In this document: positions 22,358 through 59,335 of the stretch, one piece after another | How the letters are laid out: every line of letters starts with the position of its first letter | Position numbering within the stretch: the stretch's first letter is position 1 | Assembly (NCBI GenBank): GCA_040766655.1 | Contig: JAXGQB010000020.1 | Location: forward strand, 28,327-92,326 | Source of the DNA: Anaerolineae bacterium | Lineage (GTDB): Bacteria > Chloroflexota > Anaerolineae > CG2-30-64-16 | Direction of reading: 5' to 3' | Length of the DNA: 64,000 bases | Notes under the pieces: generated by a model | Told to the model about the DNA's origin: nothing | Databases searched by the model: none | Seen by the model: only the letters and a program-made list of their open reading frames with translations | Position numbers and translations under genes: made by a program

Positions 22358-22927
22358 ATGAGACGACTCTACCTGCCGGCGGCACTGTTGCTCGCCCTGC
22401 TGCTGACCGGCACGGCCCTGGCGCAGACCAGCGAGCCTTATGACCTGAGTTGGTGGACGCTGGACGGCGGCGGCGCGCTCAGCGAAGGCGGCAACTACGC
22501 GTTGAGCGGCGCCATCGGGCAGCCGGACGCCGGCGGACCACTGAGCGGCGACGCCTACGAGGTTACTGGCGGCTTCTGGCTGGCCGACCGGGCTTCGCCC
22601 CTGGCAGTTGTGGACCTGCGTGGCTCGGAGGACGGTGGCCTGCTGCGCCTGGACTGGAGCCCCGTGACACTGGATACCGCAGGCGACAGCATCGCCGGCG
22701 TGAGTTACAGCGTCTATCGCTCTGCCAGCCAGCCATACTTCACGGCGGATTTAGCCTACAAGAGCGAACTGACGGAACCAAAGTTCCAGGACCCGGATCC
22801 AACCGTCATCGATAACTTCGCAGCCAGCCACTACTACCTGGTCCGCGCCGTCCACGGCGCTTCGATGTCGACCGACTCGAACCGGATCGGCGTCTTTGCC
22901 TTCGGCCTCACGCCCGGCGCCCAATGA
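22358..22927 (+). CDS. Small secreted protein: Gly-rich N-domain plus FN3-like domain ending in IGVFAFGLTPGAQ (cassette 1, gene 1)
   Basis: Signal peptide MRRLYLPAALLLALLLTGTALAQ. YDLSWWTLDGGG...NYALSGAIGQPDAG...YEVTGGFW. GGAGG RBS. Paralog of 50051-50575. Confidence 0.8.
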   Translation: MRRLYLPAALLLALLLTGTALAQTSEPYDLSWWTLDGGGALSEGGNYALSGAIGQPDAGGPLSGDAYEVTGGFWLADRASPLAVVDLRGSEDGGLLRLDWSPVTLDTAGDSIAGVSYSVYRSASQPYFTADLAYKSELTEPKFQDPDPTVIDNFAASHYYLVRAVHGASMSTDSNRIGVFAFGLTPGAQ

Positions 22928-22947
22928 GAAGGATAGGAGCATTCATC

Positions 22948-24672
22948 GTGACAAAGAGAAACCTGCTGCACTTGTTGGCAGTCGTCGTATTAGTGTTGAC
23001 CTTCAGCGGCACATCCCAGGCCCAGGAGGGGTCAGCGCAGGCCGAGGCGAGTGCACTCGCCACCGCGGCGGGCACGAACTTCACCTACCAGGGTCGACTC
23101 ACGGTCGGCGGAATCCCGGCCAACGGCAGGTACGACTTCGAGTTTCAGCTCTTCACTGCGCCGGGCTCCGGCGGCACGGCGAGCGATGTCGTAGCCATCA
23201 TGGGCCAGACGGTCACAGGTGGCCTGTTCACGGTCGAACTCGATTTCGGCGAGGTGTTTCGCGGGAACGCCATCTACCTGGAGGTGCGCGTGCGGGCATC
23301 CGGCAGCGGCGAGGCCTTCACGCCGCTCACGCCGCGCCAGGCGATAACGGCTGCACCCTACGCGCAATTCGCGCTCAAGACAGCCGCACACGATCACTTC
23401 GGCGACACGTGGACAGGATCAAGCGGCGCGGATGGTCTCCGGTTGCAGCACACGGCTGCGAGCGGCGCCAGAAGCGGCGTCTCTGCGAGCAGCGCCAGCA
23501 CCCAGGGCACGGGCGTCCTCGGGGAGGCCACCGCGACCGATGGAACCACATACGGCGTGCGGGGTGTGAACAGCAGCCCTCAAGGCGCAGGCGTGTTCGG
23601 AGAATCCACGGATGGCGTGGGCACCGCACCAGGGGTCAGGGGCAGGACGACCAGCCAGAATGCAAGTGGTGTCCGCGGCGACAATGACGATACCATAGGC
23701 TACGGTTTCGGCGTGTGGGGACGCAGCAGCAGTCCCTATGGCGGGGGCGTCGCTGGCACGGGGAACATGTACGGGGTCTATGGCGAAACCCAGACGACCT
23801 ACGGCAGGGGCGTGCATGGCGTCAACATTGCCGAAACCGGCATCAATTTTGGGGTGTACGGAGAGAGCCTGAGCACCAGCGGCACAGGGGTGTACGGCGT
23901 TGCGTTTAACTCCAACGGCTCCAACTACGGCGTGAGGGGCGAGTCCAACAGCGAGAGCGGAGTTGGCGTCCACGGCAAGGTCCCCATGGACAGCCTCGGT
24001 GCAGGCGTCGTCGGCGAAGGGAGCACGGGCGTCCGCGGGACTTCCGATGGTCCTCAGGGCATCGGTGTCGTAGGTTTCGCTACCAGCAGCACCGGCGTCA
24101 ATTACGGCGTTTGGGGGGTGACCAATAGCGCCACGGGCTATGCGGGCTATTTTGGCGGCCAGGTGCAGATCGACGGCACGCTCAGCAAGGCGGGCGGCTC
24201 GTTCAAGATCGATCATCCCCTGGACCCGGAGAACAAATACCTGTCCCATTCCTTCGTCGAGTCGCCAGATATGATGAATGTCTACAACGGCAACGTCACC
24301 CTGGATGGGAACGGCGAGGCGCAGGTGGCGCTGCCTGACTACTTCGAGGCGCTGAACCGCGACTTCCGCTACCAGCTCACCCCCATCGGTGGCTGGGCGC
24401 CGATCTACATCGCGCAGGAGATCGAGGGCAATGCTTTCCGAATCGCCGGCGGCGAACCCGGGCTGAAGGTCTCGTGGCAGGTGACGGGCATCCGCCAGGA
24501 CGCCTGGGCGGAGGCGAACCGCATCGTCGTGGAAGAAGCGAAGACGGCCGAGGAGCAGGGCCGCTACCTCCACCCAGAGGCGCTGGGTCAACCGAAGAGC
24601 CTGGACGTGGACTACGAGCGTGAGCGCCAACTTTTGGAGCGGTCCGAGGCCAGCAGGGCCACCGACCGCTGA
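22948..24672 (+). CDS. Secreted fibre-like protein: FTYQGRL head, 13-residue GV-G-S-S--G repeats and a conserved C-terminal FKIDHPLDP domain (cassette 1, gene 2)
   Basis: The track ORF starts at ATG 22924 (ATGA overlap). GTG 22948 has an AGGAG RBS and gives a start (V/M)TKRNLLHLLAVVVLVLTFSGTSQA that parallels the paralog at 50678. The C-terminal ~160 aa are highly similar to the paralog. Confidence 0.8.
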   Translation: MTKRNLLHLLAVVVLVLTFSGTSQAQEGSAQAEASALATAAGTNFTYQGRLTVGGIPANGRYDFEFQLFTAPGSGGTASDVVAIMGQTVTGGLFTVELDFGEVFRGNAIYLEVRVRASGSGEAFTPLTPRQAITAAPYAQFALKTAAHDHFGDTWTGSSGADGLRLQHTAASGARSGVSASSASTQGTGVLGEATATDGTTYGVRGVNSSPQGAGVFGESTDGVGTAPGVRGRTTSQNASGVRGDNDDTIGYGFGVWGRSSSPYGGGVAGTGNMYGVYGETQTTYGRGVHGVNIAETGINFGVYGESLSTSGTGVYGVAFNSNGSNYGVRGESNSESGVGVHGKVPMDSLGAGVVGEGSTGVRGTSDGPQGIGVVGFATSSTGVNYGVWGVTNSATGYAGYFGGQVQIDGTLSKAGGSFKIDHPLDPENKYLSHSFVESPDMMNVYNGNVTLDGNGEAQVALPDYFEALNRDFRYQLTPIGGWAPIYIAQEIEGNAFRIAGGEPGLKVSWQVTGIRQDAWAEANRIVVEEAKTAEEQGRYLHPEALGQPKSLDVDYERERQLLERSEASRATDR

Positions 24673-27584: not shown

Positions 27585-27613
27585 TTGACGCACGGCCGAG
27601 GCGATGCTAGACT
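27585..27613 (+). promoter_or_regulatory. Candidate promoter of the ABC importer operon
   Basis: TTGACG (27585-27590), a 17-nt spacer, then TAGACT (27608-27613). Preceded by GATTGAAGA direct repeats at 27551 and 27572. Confidence 0.5.
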
Positions 27614-27662
27614 ACCGTGGCCATTGTGCAAGTCAGATACATCGACAAGGAGGAGAAGCGTT

Positions 27663-29324
27663 ATGTCACGGAAAATGGCGACCCTTGCTGTTCTCGTGCT
27701 CGTCATGGCTGTCGCGATCGCGTGCGCACCCGCCGCGCCGGCCCCGGCAACCCAGCCTACCGCTGCACCTGCTGCCGAACAGCCGGCCGCCCCCGCGGCG
27801 CCGGCCGAACAGCCCGCAGGTCCCGTAAAGGGCGGCACCATCGTCGTCGGCCTCCAGGCCGAACCCACCACTCTCGACTCCCAACAGATCAGCGACTACA
27901 ACTCGCACCGCGCCGCGTACGGCATCTACGACATGCTCCTCCGCTTCGAAGACGAGGGCACGAACGTTGAACCCGGTCTCGCAGAGCGATGGGAGATCTC
28001 CGATGACGGCCTGGAATATACGCTGTATCTGCGCCAGGGCGTCAAGTTCCACGACGGCACTGACTTCAACGCGGACGCGGTGAAGTTCAACATCGACCGG
28101 CAGATCGACGTGGACCATCCCTTCCACAACACCGGCCAGTTTGCCTACGCAGAGTTTACGTGGGGCATGGTGGACCGCGTCGAGGTCGTGGATCCGTACA
28201 CCGTCAAGTTCGTGCTGAAGGACAAGTTCGCGCCGTTCCTCAACCATCTTGCGATGCATCCGGCCGCCATGGCCAGCCCGGCTGCCGTCGAGAAGTACGG
28301 GATGGACTTCTCCATCAACCCGGTCGGCACCGGCCCGTTCAAATTCGTGCGCTGGACGCCCGGCGTCGAGGTCGTGCTGGAAAAGAACCCGGACTACTGG
28401 CGCGGCGAGCCGCTGCTGGACCAGATCATCTACCGCCCCATCATCGAGGATCAGTCACGCCTGACCGAGCTCGAATCCGGTGGGGTGAACTTCATGGTCA
28501 ACGTGCCGCCCGACGACCTGGCGCGCATCAAGGGCGACAGCCAGTACACCGTGGTCGAACAGGCCGGCATGCACACATGGTGGGTGGCCTTCAACCACGC
28601 GAAGGAGCCGTTCAACAACAAGCTGGTGCGCCAGGCCATGAACTACGCGATCAACAAGCAGGCGATCGTCGACAACATCCTGAAGGGCACGGGACAGCTC
28701 GCGGTCAGCCCGCTCCCGCCCGTCGTGTGGAGCTACACGGACGACATCCAGACCTACGAGTATAACCCGGAGAAGGCGAAGGAACTGCTGGCCGAGGCCG
28801 GCTATCCGGACGGGTTCACCTGTGACTTCTGGCTCCCCGAATCCGGCTCGGGCATGCAGCAGCCGGTCGTGATGGGAACCGCGATGCAGGCCGATCTCAA
28901 GGCCGTGGGCATCGACTGCACCATCCAGACGTTCGAGTGGGGCAGCTACCTGGAAAAGGTCATCGTGCCGCCCGACCAGGCCGAGTTCGACCTGATGGAG
29001 ATGTCGTGGATCGGCGACAACGGCGATCCCGACAACTTCCTGTACATCCTGCTGAGCGGCGAGCAGTTCCCGCCCAACGGCTACAACATGGGCTTCTACA
29101 ACAACGAAGAAGTCAACAAGCTCCTGGCCGAGGCGCGTGTCACGCTGGACAAGGCCCAGCGAACCGAGCTGTACGTGCAGGCGCAGAAGCTGATTGCCGA
29201 GGATCCGCCGTGGATGGTCATCGACCACGAATCGCAGATCGTGGCGATGAGCAACAAGATCAAGAACTTCAAGCTCCATCCCACCGGACCGTTCCGCTTC
29301 GACGAGGTGTGGATCGAGCCCTAG
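27663..29324 (+). CDS. ABC transporter substrate-binding lipoprotein, family 5 (peptide/nickel, DppA/OppA-like)
   Basis: AAGGAGGAG RBS. MSRKMATLAVLVLVMAVAIAC lipobox-type signal, an Ala/Pro linker, then the family-5 pattern (GGTIVVG..EP..LD, NPDYWRGEP). Confidence 0.88.
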   Translation: MSRKMATLAVLVLVMAVAIACAPAAPAPATQPTAAPAAEQPAAPAAPAEQPAGPVKGGTIVVGLQAEPTTLDSQQISDYNSHRAAYGIYDMLLRFEDEGTNVEPGLAERWEISDDGLEYTLYLRQGVKFHDGTDFNADAVKFNIDRQIDVDHPFHNTGQFAYAEFTWGMVDRVEVVDPYTVKFVLKDKFAPFLNHLAMHPAAMASPAAVEKYGMDFSINPVGTGPFKFVRWTPGVEVVLEKNPDYWRGEPLLDQIIYRPIIEDQSRLTELESGGVNFMVNVPPDDLARIKGDSQYTVVEQAGMHTWWVAFNHAKEPFNNKLVRQAMNYAINKQAIVDNILKGTGQLAVSPLPPVVWSYTDDIQTYEYNPEKAKELLAEAGYPDGFTCDFWLPESGSGMQQPVVMGTAMQADLKAVGIDCTIQTFEWGSYLEKVIVPPDQAEFDLMEMSWIGDNGDPDNFLYILLSGEQFPPNGYNMGFYNNEEVNKLLAEARVTLDKAQRTELYVQAQKLIAEDPPWMVIDHESQIVAMSNKIKNFKLHPTGPFRFDEVWIEP

Positions 29325-50050: not shown

Positions 50051-50575
50051 ATGAACAGGCTACCTCGAGTCTTGCCCTTGGCCCTCCTGTTCCTCGTGCT
50101 CGTGCCAGCCCTGGCCCTGGCACAGTCGGGCGGGCCATATGACCTCTCCTGGAGCACGATCGACGGCGGCGGCCACACCTTCAGCGCGGGCGGGTCGTAC
50201 GAATTGGGCGGCACGGCCGGACAGGCGGACGCCGGGTTGATGAGCGGCGGCAACTACGAGCTCAGCGCCGGCTTCTGGCTGTGCGTCACCGCGGAGGTGG
50301 CCGCCGCAGGTATCGCAACCAGCGGCGCAACCGTCACCCTGACCTGGACCGCCGGCGAGCCGACGGCCAACATCTACCGCGGCCAGGACGATCCCTACTT
50401 CACGCCGGGTGCGGTCTATGCCGGCGGGGTAAGCAGCGGTTGGACCGATACCGGTGCGGCCGGCAACCCCGCGCACAACGACACCTACATCATCCGCGCC
50501 CAGGGCGGCTGCGGCGAGTCGGCCGACAGCCGGCGGCTGGGCGAGTTCGATTTCGCCCTGACCCCCGGGACTTGA
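50051..50575 (+). CDS. Small secreted protein: Gly-rich N-domain plus FN3-like domain ending in LGEFDFALTPGT (cassette 2, gene 1)
   Basis: MNRLPRVLPLALLFLVLVPALALAQ signal (the track ORF begins at GTG 50042). YDLSWSTIDGGG...SYELGGTAGQADAG...YELSAGFW. Paralog of 22358-22927. Confidence 0.8.
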   Translation: MNRLPRVLPLALLFLVLVPALALAQSGGPYDLSWSTIDGGGHTFSAGGSYELGGTAGQADAGLMSGGNYELSAGFWLCVTAEVAAAGIATSGATVTLTWTAGEPTANIYRGQDDPYFTPGAVYAGGVSSGWTDTGAAGNPAHNDTYIIRAQGGCGESADSRRLGEFDFALTPGT

Positions 50576-50677
50576 CGCTCGCGTCACAGCCGGAGCTGGC
50601 AGATTCGGGCGGAGAGGCAGCGCCTCTGATTTGCGCCGCGGGCGCACCTGACCGAGTCGGGACTGGAGGAGACGGAC

Positions 50678-52666
50678 ATGCATACACGAAAAACACTGGC
50701 GTTGATGCTGGCGCTGCTGATGGCATTAAGCGCGCTGGCTGGCGGCGTGGCTGCCGCACAGGCGCCGGCGGAGGCGGGGCCGGCTGGCATCGGGCCCGAA
50801 GCGGCTCTCGCCGCCGTGAGCACCGGCTTCACGTACCAGGGACGGCTGACCGACGCCGGCAACCCAGCCGCCGGTCCCTATGACTTCGTGTTCCGGCTGT
50901 ACGATGCGCTGACCGGCGGCAGCCAGGTGGGCGGGATCGTCACCCAGGGCGACGTGGCCGTCAGCAACGGCCTGTTCACGGTCAGCCTGGATTTCGGTGT
51001 GGTCTTCGACGGCGCCGCGCGCTGGCTGGAGATCGCCGTGCGGCCAGGGGCCAGCAATGACGCCTACGCAATCCTCAGCCCGCGGCAGGCGCTGGCGGCC
51101 ACGCCCTATGCCCTTCACTCGTTGAGCACGGCAGCCCACGACCACTTCGGCGAGACGTGGACCGGCGCGACGGTTGGCGATGGCCTGCGGGTGGAAAACA
51201 CGGCCGCAAGTGGCTACGCCTACGGCGTCACCGGCCAGAGCGCCAGCACCAGCGGCCGCGGCGTCTACGGCTATGCCAGCGCGGCCAGTGGTACGACCTA
51301 TGGGGTGCAAGGCCAGTCTGCCAGCACAGATGGCCGTGGGGTGTATGGTCTGGTCACGACCAGCAGCGGGCCAGCCTCAGGCGTCTTCGGGGAGAGCACC
51401 AGCACCGGCGGCCGCGGCGTCTACGGCAGAGCGACGGCCACCAGCGGCCAGGCCTTCGGGGTGCACGGCGTGTCGGCGAGCAGCAACGGCCGCGGCCTGT
51501 ACGGGCACGCCACGTCCGCCAGCGGCTCGACGTACGGTGTGGTCGGCGAGACCGAGAGCACGACCGGCGCCGGCGTGCAAGGCATTGCCTCCTCCTTCAC
51601 CGGCATCAACTATGGCGTGTGGGGTCTGTCCCCCAGCACCGCTGGCACCGGGGTGCTGGGCCAGGCTTCAGCCGCCACCGGCACCACCTTCGGCGTTTAT
51701 GGCCAGTCCTCCAGCGACCAGGGTTACGGAGTGTACGGCGTGACCTGGGCGAACACGGGCGTCACCTATGGCGTGTACGGCAGGGCCCTGAGCACCAGCG
51801 GCTACGCCGGCTATTTCACGGGCAAGGGACCCGATGCCGTGGTCGTCACAAACACCGGCGCCGGCCGAGGGATCTCCGTCGAAACCTCCACCGACACGGC
51901 GATCTGGGCCATAACCGACGCCGGCCTTGCCGCCGTCGACGGCCGCGCGGCCGGTGCAACCGGGCGGGGCCTGTACGGCTTCGCTACAGCCGCAGCCGGT
52001 GCGAACTCAGGGGTGTACGGCCGCACCGCCAGCACCGACGGCCGCGGGGTCTACGGCTGGGCTGAAGCCACCAGCGGCACCAACTACGGGGTGTACGGGC
52101 GCACCAGCAGCGCCTCCGGCTATGCCGGATACTTCCAGGGCAACCTTCGCACGACCGCCACGCTGACCAAGGCGGCCGGCTCGTTCAAGATCGACCACCC
52201 ACTCGATCCGGCAAACCAGTATCTCTCCCACTCGTTCGTCGAGTCGCCCGACATGATGAACCTCTACAACGGTAACGCCGTTCTGGATGCCCAAGGCGAG
52301 GCCACGGTAATCCTGCCCGAGTGGTTCGAGGCGCTGAACCAGGACTTCCGCTACCAGTTGACGCCCGTCGGCGCGGCCATGCCCAACCTGTACGTCGCGC
52401 AGAAGGTTCAAGACAACACGTTCCGGATCGCGGGCGGCGTGCCCGGCATGGAGGTCTCCTGGATGGTGACCGGCATCCGTCACGATGCCTACGCCAACGC
52501 TCACCGCATCCCAGTGGAAGAGCAGAAGCCGGCAGAGGAGAGGGGTCTCTACCTGCACCCCACCGAACTGGGCCAGCCGGCAGAACTGGGGCTGGATCAT
52601 CAGCGGGACACTGACCAGTCGCAGCAGAACGGACCAGGCATACCGGGGCAAGCCGCAACGAAGTGA
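50678..52666 (+). CDS. Secreted fibre-like protein with 13-residue repeats and a conserved C-terminal FKIDHPLDP domain (cassette 2, gene 2)
   Basis: GGAGGAG RBS. Signal MHTRKTLALMLALLMALSALAGGVAAAQA. FTYQGRLTDAGNPAAGPYDF head and more than 20 GV-G-S-S--G repeats. The C-terminal domain aligns with 24190-24672 at high DNA identity by eye. Confidence 0.85.
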   Translation: MHTRKTLALMLALLMALSALAGGVAAAQAPAEAGPAGIGPEAALAAVSTGFTYQGRLTDAGNPAAGPYDFVFRLYDALTGGSQVGGIVTQGDVAVSNGLFTVSLDFGVVFDGAARWLEIAVRPGASNDAYAILSPRQALAATPYALHSLSTAAHDHFGETWTGATVGDGLRVENTAASGYAYGVTGQSASTSGRGVYGYASAASGTTYGVQGQSASTDGRGVYGLVTTSSGPASGVFGESTSTGGRGVYGRATATSGQAFGVHGVSASSNGRGLYGHATSASGSTYGVVGETESTTGAGVQGIASSFTGINYGVWGLSPSTAGTGVLGQASAATGTTFGVYGQSSSDQGYGVYGVTWANTGVTYGVYGRALSTSGYAGYFTGKGPDAVVVTNTGAGRGISVETSTDTAIWAITDAGLAAVDGRAAGATGRGLYGFATAAAGANSGVYGRTASTDGRGVYGWAEATSGTNYGVYGRTSSASGYAGYFQGNLRTTATLTKAAGSFKIDHPLDPANQYLSHSFVESPDMMNLYNGNAVLDAQGEATVILPEWFEALNQDFRYQLTPVGAAMPNLYVAQKVQDNTFRIAGGVPGMEVSWMVTGIRHDAYANAHRIPVEEQKPAEERGLYLHPTELGQPAELGLDHQRDTDQSQQNGPGIPGQAATK

Positions 52667-52835: not shown

Positions 52836-53735
52836 ATGACAACCACCTCATCAGCGTGGACCGCCACCCTCATCCACCTTCTCGCGCTGGCCACCAGGCT
52901 CGAAGATGAGGGCCAGTACAACCTAGCCAAGCTGGCGCGCGCTGCCGCGGACTCGCTGAGCCGCGGCGCTGCGTATAACGTCGCCATGCCGGCCGAGAAA
53001 GATGCGCTCGCCGCGGACATCAAGCAGACCGCAAGGGATCTGTCCCGGCTCGGCGCCAGCCCGGAGCTGCTGTCTGCGCTCAGCGAGGGCGCCGACGTGA
53101 TGGCCGGCGGCGGCGTGCCTCTCATTTCGGTCACGCCGCATCCCTACGTGTGCCGCACGTGCGGCCACCTGCTGCTCGGCGAACCAGAGATCAACTGCCC
53201 GACCTGCGGCGCGTGGCCCGGCACGTACCAGCGCTTCATGCCGAACTACTGGTTCGATGCGCTGGAGCCGCCGGCCGCGCTGTCACGGCTGCGCCAGACG
53301 CCCGTTGACGTGGCGGCGCTGATGGAAGGGCTTTCGGAAGCGCAGCTGAGCCAGACACCGGCGGATGGCGGATGGGCGATTCGCAACGCGCTGATGCACC
53401 TGCGCGATGCGCAGGACGTGCTTGCGTTCAGGATCGAGCTGTTCCTTCAGAATGAGCTTCCTGTGCTCGAGTCCAAGGCCGTTTGGACGTGGGCGGCCAA
53501 CGAGCCGGAGCGACCGCCCACCGCACGCGAGATCTTCGAGGCATACAGGTCCTCGCGCGCGCAAACGTTGGACACTTTGGCGCAACTGCCCCTCGCCCGA
53601 TGGTGGCGCACGGGCCGGCACGAGGAGTTCGGCGCCATCACGCTGCGCCAGCAGGTCAGCTATTCTGCCGCACACGAGATGACGCACCTCTCGCAGATCG
53701 CGTCGCTGCGCCGGCAGTGGGCGGTAGGTGGGTGA
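52836..53735 (+). CDS. DinB-family (DinB_2-like) protein fused to an N-terminal helical segment and a CxxC...CxxC zinc-ribbon
   Basis: ATG 52836 with an AGGAGA RBS. YVCRTCGHLLLGEPEINCPTCG ribbon. The C-terminal half has the His pattern of DinB-like four-helix bundles (MHLRD...AAHEMTHLSQI). Confidence 0.65.
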   Translation: MTTTSSAWTATLIHLLALATRLEDEGQYNLAKLARAAADSLSRGAAYNVAMPAEKDALAADIKQTARDLSRLGASPELLSALSEGADVMAGGGVPLISVTPHPYVCRTCGHLLLGEPEINCPTCGAWPGTYQRFMPNYWFDALEPPAALSRLRQTPVDVAALMEGLSEAQLSQTPADGGWAIRNALMHLRDAQDVLAFRIELFLQNELPVLESKAVWTWAANEPERPPTAREIFEAYRSSRAQTLDTLAQLPLARWWRTGRHEEFGAITLRQQVSYSAAHEMTHLSQIASLRRQWAVGG

Positions 53736-53881
53736 CCCGGGCCGAACCTGTCCGGCGGAGGTGTGGGTCCGCCATCTGGACATGCGCACTGCCGGATGGA
53801 TGCCAACGCAACAAAGGTGTCGTGGGTGGTGCGTCAGGGCTCCCGGCCGGGTCGCGGCCGGCGTCTGTGCAGGAGGTTATC

Positions 53882-56800
53882 ATGCGACAACACCAGTTTG
53901 AGCTCGGATCGGCCAGGCAACCGTGGCAAGCCCTCGCCGTCCTCTGCGCCGCCATCCTGCTGGTGCTCGCCGTGGCGGGCCCCGTGCTGGCCGGGCAAGA
54001 CCCGGCCAGCGTCCACGCGCCCGCCGCCTGCGTGCCGCTGACCGGCCCGAACCAGATCGCCTCGCCCATGGTCGTCACCTTCGATGACCTGCCGGCCGGT
54101 TCGAGCATCGGCAGCTTCTACCAACGCACCCACGGCATCCGGTTTGAGGACAGCCGCACCGCACGCGTGATCGCTTACGATCATCCGTCGCCTCGCTCCG
54201 CGCCCATGACCGCGATGAGCCAGACCGACGGAGATCCCGCTGCCAGGGCTCTCAACTTCTACTTCGACTCACCTCAAGCCTCCGTTGGCCTGTTCGCGGG
54301 CAACGGCGGCGGCGCGTCCGCGGCCCGGCTGGAGGGCTTCGACGCGGACGGCAACCTGGTCTGTGCGGCCAACGCAACCAACGTGTCGGACGCCCACACC
54401 GCGTTCATCGGCTTCCGCGATGACACCCGGAGCATCGTCAGCGTATCGCTGACCTACACCACCGGGCAGGCTGAATCGCTGGACGACCTGAGCTTCAGCA
54501 GTGTTGTCCAACCGCACGCCACACCGACGCCGTCGGCGACACCTACGCCGTCACCGACTCGCCCCGCGGCCGCGACAGCGGCTCTCTTCATCTTCCCAGC
54601 CGCGGCCGCGCCCGGCGGTGCACCTGCCGTCAGCGGCTACGGCTTCCCCGCGCTCGCTGATCTCAGGTTGATACTGGCCTGTCCCGGCCAGGCGGAGCTC
54701 GACCTGAGAGCGGCGGGCACGGACGCGGGGGGCCGCCTGCGGACCGTGATCGAGTTGCCGGCCTACCCGCCCAACCCATGCATGCTGGCCGCACGCCTGG
54801 ACCGGGCCAACCTCGCCGAGACCGCACTGGCGCTGTTGCCGGCGCTGGAGCTCTCCACCTCGCCCCAGGCCGGACCGCCGGGCACGACCGTCAGCTTCAC
54901 CGTGCGCAACCTCAGCGCGGGCGAGCTACGGCTCGACTACGCGGGGCGCGCGGTCTTCGGCCCGACGCCGGTCGCAGCCGGCGCCTTCTCTGGCACGTTC
55001 ACTGTCCCGCGCGACCGGCCCGATCCCCTGGGCAGCACGGCTGACCTCCGCGCCACGAACCTGATCCTGGGCCGGGCCATCGGCGCGGTCACCGGCGCCT
55101 TCCGCTCCCAGACCGCTCCGCCGCCGCCCACCTACCGCGTGGCAGACCTGCAACTGCCGCCGGGGACTCTGCCGCCGGGCAGTGATTTCGCCATCACCGG
55201 ACGCATCAGCCCTGCGCCGCAGGGGGCGCCGAGCCAGCTCAGGGTGTTGCCGGTGTGGCGAAAGGCCGATGGCCGCACCTTCCCCATCGGCCGCGGCCCG
55301 GCCCAGATCGCCGCGGACGGCAGTTTCAGCGTACCTATACGTGTGCCGAGCCTGCTCACCGGCGATCCGACCTGGCCACAGAGCGGCGATCAGGTAGGCG
55401 TGATGCTGGTGACCGGCGCGAACCAGCCGCGGCCCTTCCTGCAGGCCATCGCGGGCGTGCCCATCTTCCCCACCTTCAACGTCAAGGTGGTCGACGCGGC
55501 GACGGGGCAACTCATCCCGTCGGCCAAGGTCAGCTTCGAGGCCTGGCAGGGTTATCAGGTCAGTGCGAACTCGCTGCCGCTGGGCGAAGTTTCCGCCGAG
55601 GCTGCCATCGGCATCACCAACCAGATCGCCCAGGCCGGTGGCGCGATCGATCTGACGGATGACGAAAAGGCCTGGATCGCCTTGACGAAAGCCGTCTGCC
55701 AGCCGCTCACCATCCCTGTGAACGGCGATAAGTGGCAGCTGATCAACCCCACCCTGGACCAGACCCTCAGCGAGCCTTCGGTGCAGGGGCTGCTCCTGGC
55801 AAACAGCGTCCTTGGGGAGGCCGCGGTGACTGCGGGCCAGTCGGTAGGAAACGGGGCGACGCTGGCGCCGGCCGTTAGTGCTGCCGGCGACGTCATCCCC
55901 TACCTGCTCACCGTGGACGCACTCGACGCGGGCTACGGCCTGAAAGTTGCAGACGCTGACGGCACCTTCACGTTGAAAAACCTCAGCCTGCACGTCAATT
56001 TCCACCTGGCCGATCTCACCTACCGCGATCTGAAGGGCAACATCCTGGCCAACCCGTACACCGTGAAGCTGGGCAAGCTCTCCTCCGGCGAACAGTCAGC
56101 CCTGGGACCAATCAAGGTCTTCCTGGCCGGCATCGGCGCGCCCGAGCTGCCAGGGCCGGCCGCGCTGCCCCGCTTCACCCGCTACTACTCGGTGAAGGAC
56201 GTACCGCCCGGCGTGCAGGTGACGAAGCAAGCCGATGGCAGCGTTCAGATCACCCTGTCGTACGCCCAGTTCCACAAGCTGGGCGCCGGGGGTATACAGC
56301 TCTACGTGGACGGCGCCTGGAAGGCCAACTTCACGACCAAGTTCAACCCCGGCCTGGCCTGCAAGAACGGAACCATCACCTGGACGAGCGAGCCGTTCTA
56401 CGAGGGCAAGGCCGTGATCCCCAACGCCCACCTGCTGGCACCCGGTTCGCGCGCCCTGCAGGTGCGGGCACAACTCCTGGACGGCCAGTGGTTTAACTAC
56501 AACTACGTCCTGCAAGTGGATGCAGTGCCTGCCTCCTGGTTTGCCGTGAAGGCCAAAGGGACGCGCACCCTAACCTGGCGTCCTGGCGAGGTCAAGCTCT
56601 TCACCACCTGGCTCCAGGCGGGGACGGACGGCCAACTGCTGCACTCTGATCCAGTCAAGACTGACGAGACCGGCCAGTTGGACAACCGCACGATCCCGAC
56701 CAACAACATCAGCCAACAGGCCCAGGCCAACGGCCACAAGGGCGGGCAGACAACGGGCCAACTCTCGGGTCAGGCCCTGAACCGTTACGGACAGGGCTGC

Positions 56801-59335
56801 AATCTCAGCAACTGCCCGGCAAAAACGTCTGCTGTTGCCGCAGAGACGTTGCGTGCAACGTCTCTGGAATCACCGGCCGCCGGCCCTGCCGCCAACTACT
56901 CCTATGGCCCCTACAAAGAGAACGTCGTGCCGGAGGTCACCTTTGATTTGCCCGAAGTCAAATACGGCATCCCGTTCGTGGCCGAGATCGCGGCCGGCGG
57001 CAGCATGTCGTACTCGGGCAGCGTCACTTACGCAGGCTCCGCCACGCTCATGGACGACGGCGCGGTGCAGAGCATACTGTCAATCGATCCGGAGGCCAAT
57101 GTCAGCGGCACGGTCTACGTGGAGGGACGGCTGTTGGCGGGGCTGATCGGCAAGGCCGGCGCCTCGCTCACCGCCAATTTCGACGTGCACATGCCCGTCA
57201 CCTACGACACGGCCAAGAGCGACCCGCTCACTGCTAGCGCTTACTTCGAGTACGGCGCCGATTTTAAGGCGTGGCACAAGTGGGGCTGCGTGCCCTACGC
57301 CGGCTGCGCGTACAGCAAGACCTACCCCAAGCATCTCTTCGACGGCTGCGAAGTGCTAACCGGCTCCGGCGGTTGTCCTGCAGCGACGAGCGCGCAGGCG
57401 GCGGGAAGCATCGCCGCAGCTGACCCGCCCCAGTTCGACCTACAGCTCGCGGCCAACGGCCAGGGCACGGTGATGGCCATCTGGCAGCAGACTCCCACCA
57501 GCCTGGCAGCCGCAATCTTCAATGGCGTCGCCTGGACTCCGGCAGGGGACATCGCCACCGGTCTCGGCAGCTCGCAGCCCCAGGTCGCGTTCCTTGGTCC
57601 GAATCGCGCCATCGCCGTCTGGACCGAGACGAACCTGACCGAGGCGCAGTTGCCCGGCCTGACCGGCGAAGAGTTGTTGCAGGCGCAGCGCATCGCCTAC
57701 GCCATCTGGAACGGCACGTCCTGGTCTGCCGGCCAACCCCTGACCACACCCGGCCTGGGTGAGGGGGGCCCCGCGCTGGCCGCCTGCCCTGCGGGGCAGC
57801 CAGGCTGTCCGGCCGGCGGCGCGGCCGTGGCCGTCTGGGAACGCAATCTCTCGCCCAACCTGGAGGCGCGCGCTATCCGCCTGGTCCACGCTCGCTACCA
57901 GGACGGCGCCTGGAGCGCACCGCAGCCGGTGGACGGCGCCAGCGCGTTCACCGACATCCTGCCCCAGGTCGCGTTCATCAACGGTGCACCGCTGGTTGCC
58001 TGGGTGCGCGACAGCGATGCCGAGCTCGCCGACGCCAGCTCCCGCCGCGTCGCCCTAAGTTTTCTGAACGGGGCTGAAACCTTCACGCCCGCCGAACTGC
58101 CCGCAGGCATCGGCGAGGTGGCGCTGGGCATGGATGGCGCGGGCCAGCCAGTGCTGGCCTTCACCCAACTGGAGAACCCGCAGCAACTGCTGAGCAACCG
58201 GCGCCCCCTGTGGGCGGCAGCAGTGACGTGCTCGGGACCGACGGCCTGCACCTGGCATCCGGTCAAGCTGACGGACGCGGCCGGCCGCACTCTCTACGCA
58301 GAGCAGCCCTTGCTGGCCACCGATGCGGCAGGACAGGTCAGCGTGACCTTCCGGGGGACGGGCTTCGGCGGGCCGGCGAACGTCCAGCCGGGCGATTCGC
58401 CCGGAATGACCAGCGGTCAGGGCGACCTCGCCCAGGCCGTGGTCAACTTCGCCACGGGCCAGGTCGCGCCGAAATACCTGACCCAGGACGGCGCGGTCAA
58501 CTGGCTGCCCGCCGCGGCTTACGACCCGCTGCTGGGCGTCTCGCTGGCAACAGCGGTCAAGGGCAGCGCCGTGGCCGGCGCAACGGGTGCGGCGCAGACG
58601 GACGGCGCCCAGTACAGCCCTGCGCCCGACCTGCCCATCGCAGCAGCGGTCGCGCCGGCCCTGCCCGACTTCGTCCTGGTGGCTGCGACGGTGAGCGGCG
58701 GTCCTGCGACCGGCGACCCGCTGAGGGCGATCGTGCAGATTGCCAACCGCGGCGCGGCGTGGCCTGGCTCGGACGAGCAACCATTGGAGATCGTTGCAGG
58801 CTGGGACGGTGCGCCGGGCATCGGCGTCCCTGCGGGGCAAGCCGCCCTGACCAGCCTGGGCGCGTCCCCGTTCGTCACGGTGACGCTCGACCTGGCGCCG
58901 CCGCCTGGGGGACTGGACCTGGCTCACGAACTGCATCTGGCAGTCAACCCAGGCCTGCCCATCGCAGAGAGGGACGCGGCGAACAACAGCGTGATCCACA
59001 CGGCAGGCCGCCTTCCTGCTCCCTTGCTCCCGTGGGTGCAGATGGAGCCCGGCAGCCCCCTGGTCTTCCTGGGCTGGGACCCGGTGGCAGATCGGCGGGT
59101 CGCGGGCTACCGCATCTACCGCTCGGAGGCGGGCGGCGCCTGGGCGCCGATCGGCGGCAGCTTCGCGCCGGGCTACGTGGATCTGTCAGCGACCTCGGGC
59201 CGCACCTACAGCTACGCGATCACTGCGTATGCCGAGAGCGGCATCGAGTCGCCCTTGAGCCAGGAAGCCAAGGTGACAGTTCCGCCCCTGCGCGTCTACC
59301 TGCCGTTGGTCATGCGAAGCACAGGGAGACAATAG
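53882..59335 (+). CDS. Giant secreted adhesin-like protein (1817 aa) with Pro/Thr linker, repeated beta-rich modules, CARDB-like and FN3 domains, and a C-terminal PPLRVYLPLVMRSTGRQ tail
   Basis: AGGAGG RBS plus ATG 53882 gives a signal-anchor WQALAVLCAAILLVLAVAGPVLAG. The track ORF start (53483) overlaps the DinB gene and is rejected. CARDB-like LPDFVLVAATVSG...IANRG region, then FN3 (GYRIYRSEAGG...YSYAITAY). Confidence 0.85.
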   Translation: MRQHQFELGSARQPWQALAVLCAAILLVLAVAGPVLAGQDPASVHAPAACVPLTGPNQIASPMVVTFDDLPAGSSIGSFYQRTHGIRFEDSRTARVIAYDHPSPRSAPMTAMSQTDGDPAARALNFYFDSPQASVGLFAGNGGGASAARLEGFDADGNLVCAANATNVSDAHTAFIGFRDDTRSIVSVSLTYTTGQAESLDDLSFSSVVQPHATPTPSATPTPSPTRPAAATAALFIFPAAAAPGGAPAVSGYGFPALADLRLILACPGQAELDLRAAGTDAGGRLRTVIELPAYPPNPCMLAARLDRANLAETALALLPALELSTSPQAGPPGTTVSFTVRNLSAGELRLDYAGRAVFGPTPVAAGAFSGTFTVPRDRPDPLGSTADLRATNLILGRAIGAVTGAFRSQTAPPPPTYRVADLQLPPGTLPPGSDFAITGRISPAPQGAPSQLRVLPVWRKADGRTFPIGRGPAQIAADGSFSVPIRVPSLLTGDPTWPQSGDQVGVMLVTGANQPRPFLQAIAGVPIFPTFNVKVVDAATGQLIPSAKVSFEAWQGYQVSANSLPLGEVSAEAAIGITNQIAQAGGAIDLTDDEKAWIALTKAVCQPLTIPVNGDKWQLINPTLDQTLSEPSVQGLLLANSVLGEAAVTAGQSVGNGATLAPAVSAAGDVIPYLLTVDALDAGYGLKVADADGTFTLKNLSLHVNFHLADLTYRDLKGNILANPYTVKLGKLSSGEQSALGPIKVFLAGIGAPELPGPAALPRFTRYYSVKDVPPGVQVTKQADGSVQITLSYAQFHKLGAGGIQLYVDGAWKANFTTKFNPGLACKNGTITWTSEPFYEGKAVIPNAHLLAPGSRALQVRAQLLDGQWFNYNYVLQVDAVPASWFAVKAKGTRTLTWRPGEVKLFTTWLQAGTDGQLLHSDPVKTDETGQLDNRTIPTNNISQQAQANGHKGGQTTGQLSGQALNRYGQGCNLSNCPAKTSAVAAETLRATSLESPAAGPAANYSYGPYKENVVPEVTFDLPEVKYGIPFVAEIAAGGSMSYSGSVTYAGSATLMDDGAVQSILSIDPEANVSGTVYVEGRLLAGLIGKAGASLTANFDVHMPVTYDTAKSDPLTASAYFEYGADFKAWHKWGCVPYAGCAYSKTYPKHLFDGCEVLTGSGGCPAATSAQAAGSIAAADPPQFDLQLAANGQGTVMAIWQQTPTSLAAAIFNGVAWTPAGDIATGLGSSQPQVAFLGPNRAIAVWTETNLTEAQLPGLTGEELLQAQRIAYAIWNGTSWSAGQPLTTPGLGEGGPALAACPAGQPGCPAGGAAVAVWERNLSPNLEARAIRLVHARYQDGAWSAPQPVDGASAFTDILPQVAFINGAPLVAWVRDSDAELADASSRRVALSFLNGAETFTPAELPAGIGEVALGMDGAGQPVLAFTQLENPQQLLSNRRPLWAAAVTCSGPTACTWHPVKLTDAAGRTLYAEQPLLATDAAGQVSVTFRGTGFGGPANVQPGDSPGMTSGQGDLAQAVVNFATGQVAPKYLTQDGAVNWLPAAAYDPLLGVSLATAVKGSAVAGATGAAQTDGAQYSPAPDLPIAAAVAPALPDFVLVAATVSGGPATGDPLRAIVQIANRGAAWPGSDEQPLEIVAGWDGAPGIGVPAGQAALTSLGASPFVTVTLDLAPPPGGLDLAHELHLAVNPGLPIAERDAANNSVIHTAGRLPAPLLPWVQMEPGSPLVFLGWDPVADRRVAGYRIYRSEAGGAWAPIGGSFAPGYVDLSATSGRTYSYAITAYAESGIESPLSQEAKVTVPPLRVYLPLVMRSTGRQ

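Follow-up and report, generated by a model that had tools for sequence, protein, structure and literature searches.

Two cassettes of a small secreted protein and a fiber

We describe two gene pairs in a 64,000-nucleotide (nt) stretch of contig JAXGQB010000020.1 (GenBank assembly GCA_040766655.1, positions 28,327 to 92,326 of the forward strand) from an Anaerolineae bacterium of the Chloroflexota. This whole stretch is called the window, and positions are counted from its first letter unless another locus is named. Each pair, or cassette, encodes a small secreted protein (gene 1; g1A and g1B) followed by a long fiber protein (gene 2; g2A and g2B), and comparison with other genomes links genes of the gene 1 kind to fiber genes that share the N-terminal head of gene 2. 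An initial annotation, made from the sequence alone, had proposed a two-component extracellular fiber or adhesin module in which gene 1 is a partner or anchor. The parts of the two cassettes, all on the + strand, are as follows.

22358..22927, +: g1A, small secreted module protein of 189 aa (open reading frame [ORF] list and the public assemblies' gene call); residues 1-23 signal peptide, then a 48-aa module, then a beta-rich C-terminal domain with the end FAFGLTPGAQ
22439..22579, +: g1A N-terminal module, residues 28-74 (YDLSWWTLDGGG...GAIGQPDAG...YEVTGGFW); matched by the module hidden Markov model (HMM) at E ~1e-25
22948..24672, +: g2A, tail-fiber-like fiber protein, 574 aa from GTG 22948, or 582 aa from the alternative start ATG 22924, which lies across the g1A stop
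23080..23367, +: g2A N-terminal head (FTYQG...APYA), a beta-sandwich (AlphaFold, phmmer)
23389..23418, +: g2A HxH motif HDHFGDTWTG at the start of the shaft (motif count in homologs)
23389..24159, +: g2A Gly/Ser/Thr-rich shaft of 26-residue (12+14) repeats, with the end GYAGYFGG (autocorrelation, alignment consensus)
24196..24537, +: g2A C-terminal knob (GSFKIDHPLDP...WQVTGIR...) (78-homolog alignment, AlphaFold, identity to phage fibers)
50051..50575, +: g1B, module protein paralogous to g1A; public gene calls have 174 aa, the alternative start GTG 50042 makes 177 aa
50138-50278, +: g1B module
50678..52666, +: g2B, paralogous fiber, 662 aa
50828-51115, +: g2B head
51137-51166, +: g2B HxH motif at the start of the shaft
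51137-52141, +: g2B shaft, with an internal duplication
52178-52522, +: g2B knob

The ORF list and public gene calls place both pairs where the initial annotation had them, all the motifs it quoted are present, and the recurrence of the pair at 50051-52666 reflects clear paralogy of both genes (40% identity between g1A and g1B, E 1e-28, and 48% between g2A and g2B, E 1e-170). The signal peptides it had proposed also stand, with a hydrophobic N terminus and an AxA-type cleavage site, judged by eye, in all four proteins. A GGAGG Shine-Dalgarno sequence lies 7 nt upstream of the g1A ATG. Both of the g2A starts that had been offered exist; the likely one is GTG 22948, which stands behind an AGGAG Shine-Dalgarno sequence 20 nt past the g1A stop and gives the 574-aa protein also found in public gene calls. 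In cassette B the gap between the genes is 102 nt, and GGAGGAG precedes the g2B ATG. Because the gaps are short and Shine-Dalgarno sequences are present, both gene pairs look like operons. Promoter and terminator scans at the cassettes gave nothing informative.

Gene 2 has a fixed plan and a tip shared with phage fibers

As had been supposed, neither protein could be assigned to a characterized family: scans of all four proteins against Pfam, NCBIfam and PHROGs gave nothing significant, PDB sequence searches with the single proteins and with a profile of the g2 homolog alignment found no match, and a Pfam scan of 78 g2 homologs returned only spurious low-complexity matches. A homolog search with g2 found >7,900 clusters at 90% identity; every one was labeled "hypothetical", and no Pfam domain was present in any of them. 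A scan of species-representative genomes gave at least 589 g2 relatives from Chloroflexota, Planctomycetota, Acidobacteriota, Bacteroidota, Chlorobi/Ignavibacteria, Verrucomicrobiota, Lysobacterales, Gemmatimonadota, Armatimonadota and several candidate phyla, a spread of at least 12 phyla, mostly uncultured.

Alignment of the 78 homologs shows a fixed plan in which the signal peptide is followed by the "FTYQG...PYA" head, the motif HxH(W/F)GExWxG, 26-residue repeats, GYAGYFxG and the C-terminal domain. The shaft had been described as a run of 13-residue repeats; autocorrelation shows instead that its true period is 26, made of alternating half-units of 12 and 14 residues (0.32 in g2A and 0.40 in g2B at lag 26, with side peaks at lags 12, 14, 38 and 40, and background values of 0.11-0.12 at lag 13). 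The repeat consensus over the 78 homologs is GxGVxGxAxAxSGxxYGVxGxSxSxx. Since Tandem Repeats Finder detected no DNA-level repeat in the shaft, the repeats are visible at the protein level only. The C-terminal domain, or knob, has 22 invariant columns across the same homologs, including F-x-I-D-H-P-L-x-P, H, E, N-x-Y-x-G, R-Y-x-L, W and R. In g2B two GYAGYF shaft-end motifs, with a ~40-residue nonrepeat insert between them (window 51800-52141, residues ~375-488), indicate an apparent internal duplication or insertion relative to g2A.

The AlphaFold model of g2A gives the head (residues ~44-133) and the knob as confident beta-rich or beta-sandwich domains, with a predicted local distance difference test score (pLDDT) of >90. 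Foldseek found no match to this model in the PDB at E<=1e-3, and its weak top matches there were pieces of phage tailspikes, fibers and receptor-binding proteins, together with immunoglobulin (Ig) domains. Against predicted viral structures (BFVD) the model gave 23 matches at E<=1e-3, the best with an E value of 3e-10, headed by a phage minor tail protein and cyanophage tail-fiber proteins. The same kinship is seen in sequence: a tblastn search with the knob against 50,697 phage genomes returned 14 records with 32-42% identity and E values down to 3e-13, and in each record inspected the match lay at the C-terminal end of a tail-fiber or minor-tail protein. Among these proteins are Arthrobacter phage Mufasa8 gp19, the Prochlorococcus phage P-SSM2 tail fiber PSSM2_295 and virion proteins of the cyanophage S-TIM5 group. 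The knob thus has homologs at the C-terminal tips of a few phage tail fibers. No match to the g2 head was found among the same 50,697 phage genomes.

Phage fibers typically have an HxH motif and shafts that are Gly-rich or collagen-like, and HxH metal sites sit on the three-fold axis of phage fibers and spikes. In 47 of the 78 homologs, including some that lack the N-terminal head, the shaft opens with the motif HxH(W/F)GExWxG. By analogy with phage fibers this motif is probably a metal site on the axis of a trimer, at the base of the shaft, and gene 2 would accordingly be expected to trimerize.

The head defines a large family of mosaic fibers

An HMMER (phmmer) search with the head through 1.84 billion representative proteins, counted as clusters at 50% identity, returned 23,947 clusters at E<=1e-3; at E<=1e-10 the number was 15,953. 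The proteins that bear it range from 140 to 1,491 aa, and among the 150 best matches the head nearly always occupies residues ~20-160, directly after the signal peptide.

What follows the head differs greatly among head-bearing metagenome proteins. Their shafts include UspA1/YadA-like GGxxNxASG repeats (PDB 3pr7, E 2e-23), collagen triple-helix repeats (28 bits) and "GTGLTGGG...DVTL" repeats, and their ends include Peptidase_S74 intramolecular-chaperone domains (63.8, 34.4 and 41.4 bits; cut-off 22) and another conserved C-terminal domain, "RFYVSNAGNVYADG...PGHAM". The g2 knob is one of several tips in this set, and the head-bearing family is one of mosaic fibers. The initial annotation's view of gene 2 as a tail-fiber-like extracellular fiber is borne out by the identity of its knob to phage fiber tips and by the S74, collagen and UspA1-like elements, all of them obligately trimeric, of the relatives that share its head. 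Because the head comes directly after the signal peptide, is absent from phages and stays constant while shafts and tips vary, we take it to be the cell-proximal end, which would make the knob the distal one.

Two side observations concern individual head-bearing proteins. Two head-bearing S74 fibers (L145 1841-3913 and L169 225-2264) run on past S74 into a coiled coil, a hydrophobic helix and an RRR stretch, which together look like a sorting or anchor tail and would part from the mature fiber if S74 self-cleaves. P0395 (1,491 aa; JGI) has the sole cluster label other than "hypothetical", namely, "type VI secretion system secreted protein VgrG", which is probably an annotation artefact of its Gly-rich repeats.

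Gene 1 joins a constant module to lineage-specific tails

Full-length relatives of gene 1 are few. A sharply conserved module, xYxLxWxTIDGGG-x4-SxGGxYxLxGTIGQPDAG-x3-SGGxYxLxGGFW, makes up its first ~48 mature residues, and a profile search with this module found at least 781 proteins (at least 550-780 module relatives were detected overall). No match to the module was found in phage genomes, and our literature search found no paper on the module, on the YLP-box or on the GC-type dockerin.

The sequence that follows the module depends on the lineage. Nearly all of the top 120 module proteins are 85-102 aa long; in these, signal peptide and module are joined by a short linker to a C-terminal (Y/F)LP(L/V)xx(K/R), an end that corresponds to the NCBIfam "YLP-box putative sorting motif" (NF050076, NF053834). 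In Bacteroidota/Ignavibacteria-type proteins the module is followed by a type IX secretion system (T9SS) type A sorting domain (TIGR04183; 26.7 bits, cut-off 23) and in Planctomycetota-type proteins by a GC-type dockerin (NF041540; 62.8 bits, cut-off 29). Other tails are a "...FYRLRKP" beta domain (Verrucomicrobiota type), Ig-like repeats (Acidobacteriota) and "...NGFE" (Lysobacterales). In the window the tail is a beta-rich domain ending FxFxLTPG (FAFGLTPGAQ in g1A and FDFALTPGT in g1B). Judging from these sequences, the module is the constant part, and the tail appears to be each lineage's own surface-sorting or anchoring device.

The C-terminal part of gene 1 had been called fibronectin type III (FN3)-like. 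Its sole Pfam match was a weak one to Ig_RIMBP2 (E 0.13); one module relative, P0127, has a true PF00041 domain after the module. The domain is beta-rich and at most plausibly Ig/FN3-like. AlphaFold predicted beta strands for g1A in an unconfident model (mean pLDDT 40.9); an unconfident monomer would fit a protein that folds only upon binding, and we regard this as weak evidence from a model.

Module genes lie beside genes for head-bearing fibers

We compared two sets of loci. The fiber-first set comprised 80 genome loci, of which 52 had at least 1.5 kb of flank on both sides and were used to compare the presence of head and module; the module-first set comprised 80 metagenome loci, in which we counted the 38 module genes whose upstream sequence reached at least 2.3 kb. 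The 80 fiber-first loci contained 20 module genes, every one of them at a locus with a head-bearing gene. Among the 52 loci with sufficient flank, a module gene was found near the fiber at 13 of 36 with a head and at 0 of 16 without one (Fisher p=0.005). Looked at from the other side, 21 of the 38 module genes had a head-bearing ORF ending <600 nt upstream on the same strand, and 28 had a head at any position in the locus; the g2 knob was present on only 7 of the 21 adjacent fibers. Four further loci reached from module proteins showed a like pattern. The association of module and fiber genes is therefore real, tight, phylogenetically broad and partial.

These counts bear on the initial annotation in three respects. 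It had asked whether the two genes always co-occur, and they do not: only 13 of 36 head-bearing loci have the module, and only 21 of 38 module-first loci have an adjacent fiber. It had asked whether they keep the same order, and the rule is fiber then module (12 versus 5 in genome loci and 32 versus 6 in metagenome loci), so that the module-first order of the window is the minority. Finally, it had stressed the repeats and the knob, and the partner tracks the fiber's N-terminal head instead.

At some loci fiber-module pairs stand in tandem (for example, L066), and L091 has three pairs. We also note that g2-family fiber genes often form tandem arrays of two or three paralogs (L066, L075, L083, L091, L047, L060 and L050), some with a module gene after each fiber.

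Module genes also follow genes for secreted peptidases

At Planctomycetota-like loci the gene directly upstream of a module-dockerin gene is often one for a secreted peptidase, not a fiber. These peptidases are trypsin-like, reprolysin-like M12B and astacin M12A, and S8-like and C10-like ones assigned by motif only. They lack the head and have in common an unannotated C-terminal domain of ~65 aa, "NPFNTVxEG...G.Y.E...VRIGAP", which we call RIGAP. Sixteen ORFs contain it, and 14 of these lie immediately before a module gene (L126, L143, L146, L152, L163, L117, L133, L121, L130, L166, L114, L142, L148 and L171). At L016 (4000-5658) and L036 (3197-5911) the RIGAP protein precedes a fiber gene and a module gene. 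The domain is C-terminal everywhere except in L016, where it is internal. Since RIGAP peptidases, too, sit directly upstream of module genes, the module may be a more general adaptor for more than one class of cargo.

Surroundings of the cassettes

Cassette A is flanked by genes for a polyphosphate kinase, a DUF6909 protein and FAD-dependent oxidoreductases and cassette B by genes for an MFS transporter, an SDR protein, a DinB_2 protein and a giant secreted protein. In agreement with the initial annotation, both copies lie among chromosomal genes with no phage genes nearby, as checked over ~6-10 kb around each.

Three neighboring features are recorded here in their own right. A DDE_Tnp_1-like transposase, seen as a faint Pfam match, lies at ~27600-29300 in the window (L001 10636-12348, minus strand), ~3 kb downstream of cassette A. 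The giant secreted protein is encoded at 53483-59335 (+), two genes downstream of cassette B (1,950 aa as an ORF and 1,817 aa in the public call); it has no Pfam match, has an FN3-like segment near its C terminus and ends in RVYLPLVMRSTGRQ, an ultrashort C-terminal putative sorting motif of the YLP-box kind that passes the NF053834 cut-off (11.7 bits, cut-off 10). Elsewhere, a DarT-Macro (DarTG-like) toxin-antitoxin pair (L006/L007 1582-3205) lies ~3 kb upstream of a Fimbriimonadales fiber homolog and is probably unrelated to it.

A proposed fiber and adaptor, weighed against alternatives

We propose that each cassette encodes a surface adhesin fiber, probably trimeric, together with its cognate anchoring adaptor, a reading to which we give about an even chance. 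The fiber part of it is well supported. Gene 2 would be exported by Sec and would probably assemble into a homotrimeric mosaic fiber with the head near the cell. Its shaft would start at an HxH metal site on the three-fold axis and project the C-terminal knob as a distal end that trimerizes, binds a ligand or does both. Gene 1 would supply a small Sec-exported adaptor whose 48-residue module binds the fiber, most likely at the head, and whose C-terminal part fixes the complex to the envelope, through a plausibly Ig/FN3-like beta domain in the window and, in relatives, through a T9SS C-terminal domain, a GC-type dockerin or a YLP-box. The complex might then serve in adhesion to surfaces, polymers or other cells. 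The idea of a partner or anchor, as put forward in the initial annotation, gains comparative support from the sorting tails on module proteins and from the nonrandom adjacency of the genes; that gene 1 acts as the adaptor, binding the head physically, is what we would expect from these two facts.

Several results weigh against this proposal. About two-thirds of the head-bearing loci have no module gene nearby, and at L089 the module gene stands alone. Given the pairing with peptidases, the module's partner may not be the head as such. No recognized sorting tail was found on g1A or g1B, and neither has a YLP box at its C terminus; even on the small module proteins the YLP-box HMM scored 10.5 bits, below its cut-off of 15. 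The trimeric shaft, too, is not seen in the AlphaFold monomer of g2A, in which the shaft has a pLDDT of 45-75 and no regular secondary structure, a result that would nevertheless be compatible with an intertwined trimer modeled as a monomer.

One alternative is that the two proteins act independently, as secreted or surface proteins that are co-regulated in surface-protein neighborhoods and form no complex. The partial co-localization (36% and 55%) fits this view, as do the module genes that follow unrelated peptidases and the fact that no fusion of both proteins occurred in any locus seen. The adjacency is nonetheless tight, on the same strand with gaps of 0 to ~100 nt and often with overlapping stop and start codons, and it holds across Chloroflexota, Planctomycetota, Bacteroidota, Verrucomicrobiota, Acidobacteriota and Gammaproteobacteria although the surrounding genes differ; since the head family makes up only ~1e-5 of protein clusters, chance adjacency is negligible. 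We consider independence unlikely. Gene 1 might also be a fiber-assembly chaperone or a tip-associated adhesin like phage Tfa/gp38, acting at the distal C-terminal end and not as an anchor. The small gene usually lies directly downstream of the fiber gene, as in phage fiber/chaperone pairs; the pairs look cognate, with one small gene per fiber in tandem arrays; and the module is Gly-rich with no confident fold of its own. A chaperone of this kind would not be expected to stay constant across tips as varied as the knob, S74, collagen and others, nor would it need surface-sorting or anchoring tails, and S74 fibers already have an intramolecular chaperone of their own. The module is, moreover, absent from phage genomes. 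We down-weight this explanation, too, to unlikely because the partner correlates with the N-terminal head and not with the tip.

Two further explanations have much less in their favor. The module protein could be a pilin-like subunit of the donor-strand type, forming or capping a stalk that co-assembles with the fiber, as hinted by recurrent weak matches to NCBIfam NF058579 (CPR_pilus_PamT; 13-22.5 bits, E 6e-5 to 0.05) and by the remark in the Pam pilus paper that a tail-fiber-like protein is consistently co-localized with pam operons. The cut-off is 240 bits, far above those scores, and the alignments take in the signal peptide, and on these grounds we rejected membership in PamT; no chaperone, usher or other Pam component lies near the cassettes, and 48 aa is too small for an Ig-like pilin domain, which leaves a pilin role very improbable. 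The least probable explanation, to which we attach next to no weight, is that gene 2 is the remnant tail fiber of a prophage, a tailocin or a contractile injection system with no cellular role. The knob is shared with some phage tail fibers and the DDE transposase lies ~3 kb from cassette A, but phage, tail and baseplate genes are missing within ~6-10 kb of either copy and from the related loci inspected, the gene 2 protein has a Sec signal peptide, the knob occurs in 14 phage records versus >7,900 cellular clusters, and the genes form tandem arrays in chromosomes. We rejected a prophage remnant on gene context and on the absence of the head from the 50,697 phage records.

The proposal of a fiber with its cognate adaptor can be widened to take in the peptidases. 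In this wider form, which we put forward tentatively and think rather doubtful, the module would be a widespread anchoring adaptor acting in trans, which captures the N-terminal heads of a superfamily of trimeric fibers like those of the next section (>16,000 clusters) as well as Planctomycetota-like peptidases with the RIGAP domain and is tethered through the sorting tail of each lineage.

Comparison with known systems

Four known systems resemble parts of the cassettes. Phage tail fibers share a homologous knob in the same C-terminal position; the g2-type proteins differ from them as cellular proteins with a Sec signal peptide and a head absent from phages, encoded outside phage gene clusters, and the knob is rare in phages (14 of 50,697 records). 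Trimeric autotransporter adhesins (YadA/UspA1) are trimeric surface fibers, as gene 2 would be, and both have short Gly-rich repeats with ~13-14 residues to a turn; the shaft of one head-bearing relative is truly like the UspA1 head (3pr7). The polarity is reversed, however, with the conserved cell-side domain of g2 at the N terminus, and Pfam and NCBIfam gave no match to a YadA-type C-terminal beta-barrel anchor or to Hep_Hag/YadA in g2A, g2B or the 78 homologs. In cohesin-dockerin and T9SS C-terminal-domain display, as on the module protein here, a small modular element supplies the surface attachment; the difference is that here the tail would come in trans, on a separate small protein whose 48-aa module belongs to no known family.

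The closest counterpart is the mosaic adhesive trimer (MAT) fiber of Bdellovibrio bacteriovorus (Caulton et al. 2024, PMC10769870), so that gene 2, although it belongs to no curated family, is not as uncharacterized as the initial annotation had it: a published architectural counterpart exists. MAT fibers are laid out as a signal peptide, an invariant beta-rich N-terminal domain of ~130 aa, a trimeric fiber and S74 or non-S74 tips, and their N-terminal domain "would presumably tightly bind a surface element", which is still unidentified (PMC10769870). The g2 family likewise has a beta-rich N-terminal domain of ~100-130 aa after the leader, then a long, probably trimeric fiber with interchangeable tips, S74-terminated or non-S74 beta-sandwiches, which share that N-terminal domain. 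Both have phage-tail-fiber ancestry, multiple paralogs per genome and a surface location, known or proposed. They differ in that the g2 knob matches no solved MAT tip in the PDB by sequence or fold, that neither the 26-residue Gly-rich shaft nor the small partner gene has been described for MATs, and that the host here is a Chloroflexota-like metagenome-assembled genome of nonpredatory type. The likeness, which is one of architecture, is in our view a strong functional analogy.

We conclude that the fiber is a very large, unannotated variant of phage-derived mosaic adhesive fibers of the MAT type, and that the small partner with its 48-aa module appears to be undescribed; our literature search found nothing relevant on tail fiber-like proteins in Chloroflexi and no later work naming the MAT anchor. 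Although the head, the knob and the module are very common, none of the three is represented in Pfam, NCBIfam or PDB. The g2-type fibers appear to be a general, nonpredatory counterpart of the Bdellovibrio MAT adhesins, which suggests that phage-derived mosaic fibers are a common bacterial surface organelle. The small partner offers a testable role for the still-unpublished YLP-box and GC-type dockerin sorting elements of NCBI, and a testable answer to the question left by the MAT paper of what holds the N-terminal domain of the fiber on the cell. If the g2 head is homologous to the MAT N-terminal domain and the adaptor reading is true, the module would name a class of surface receptor for MAT fibers.

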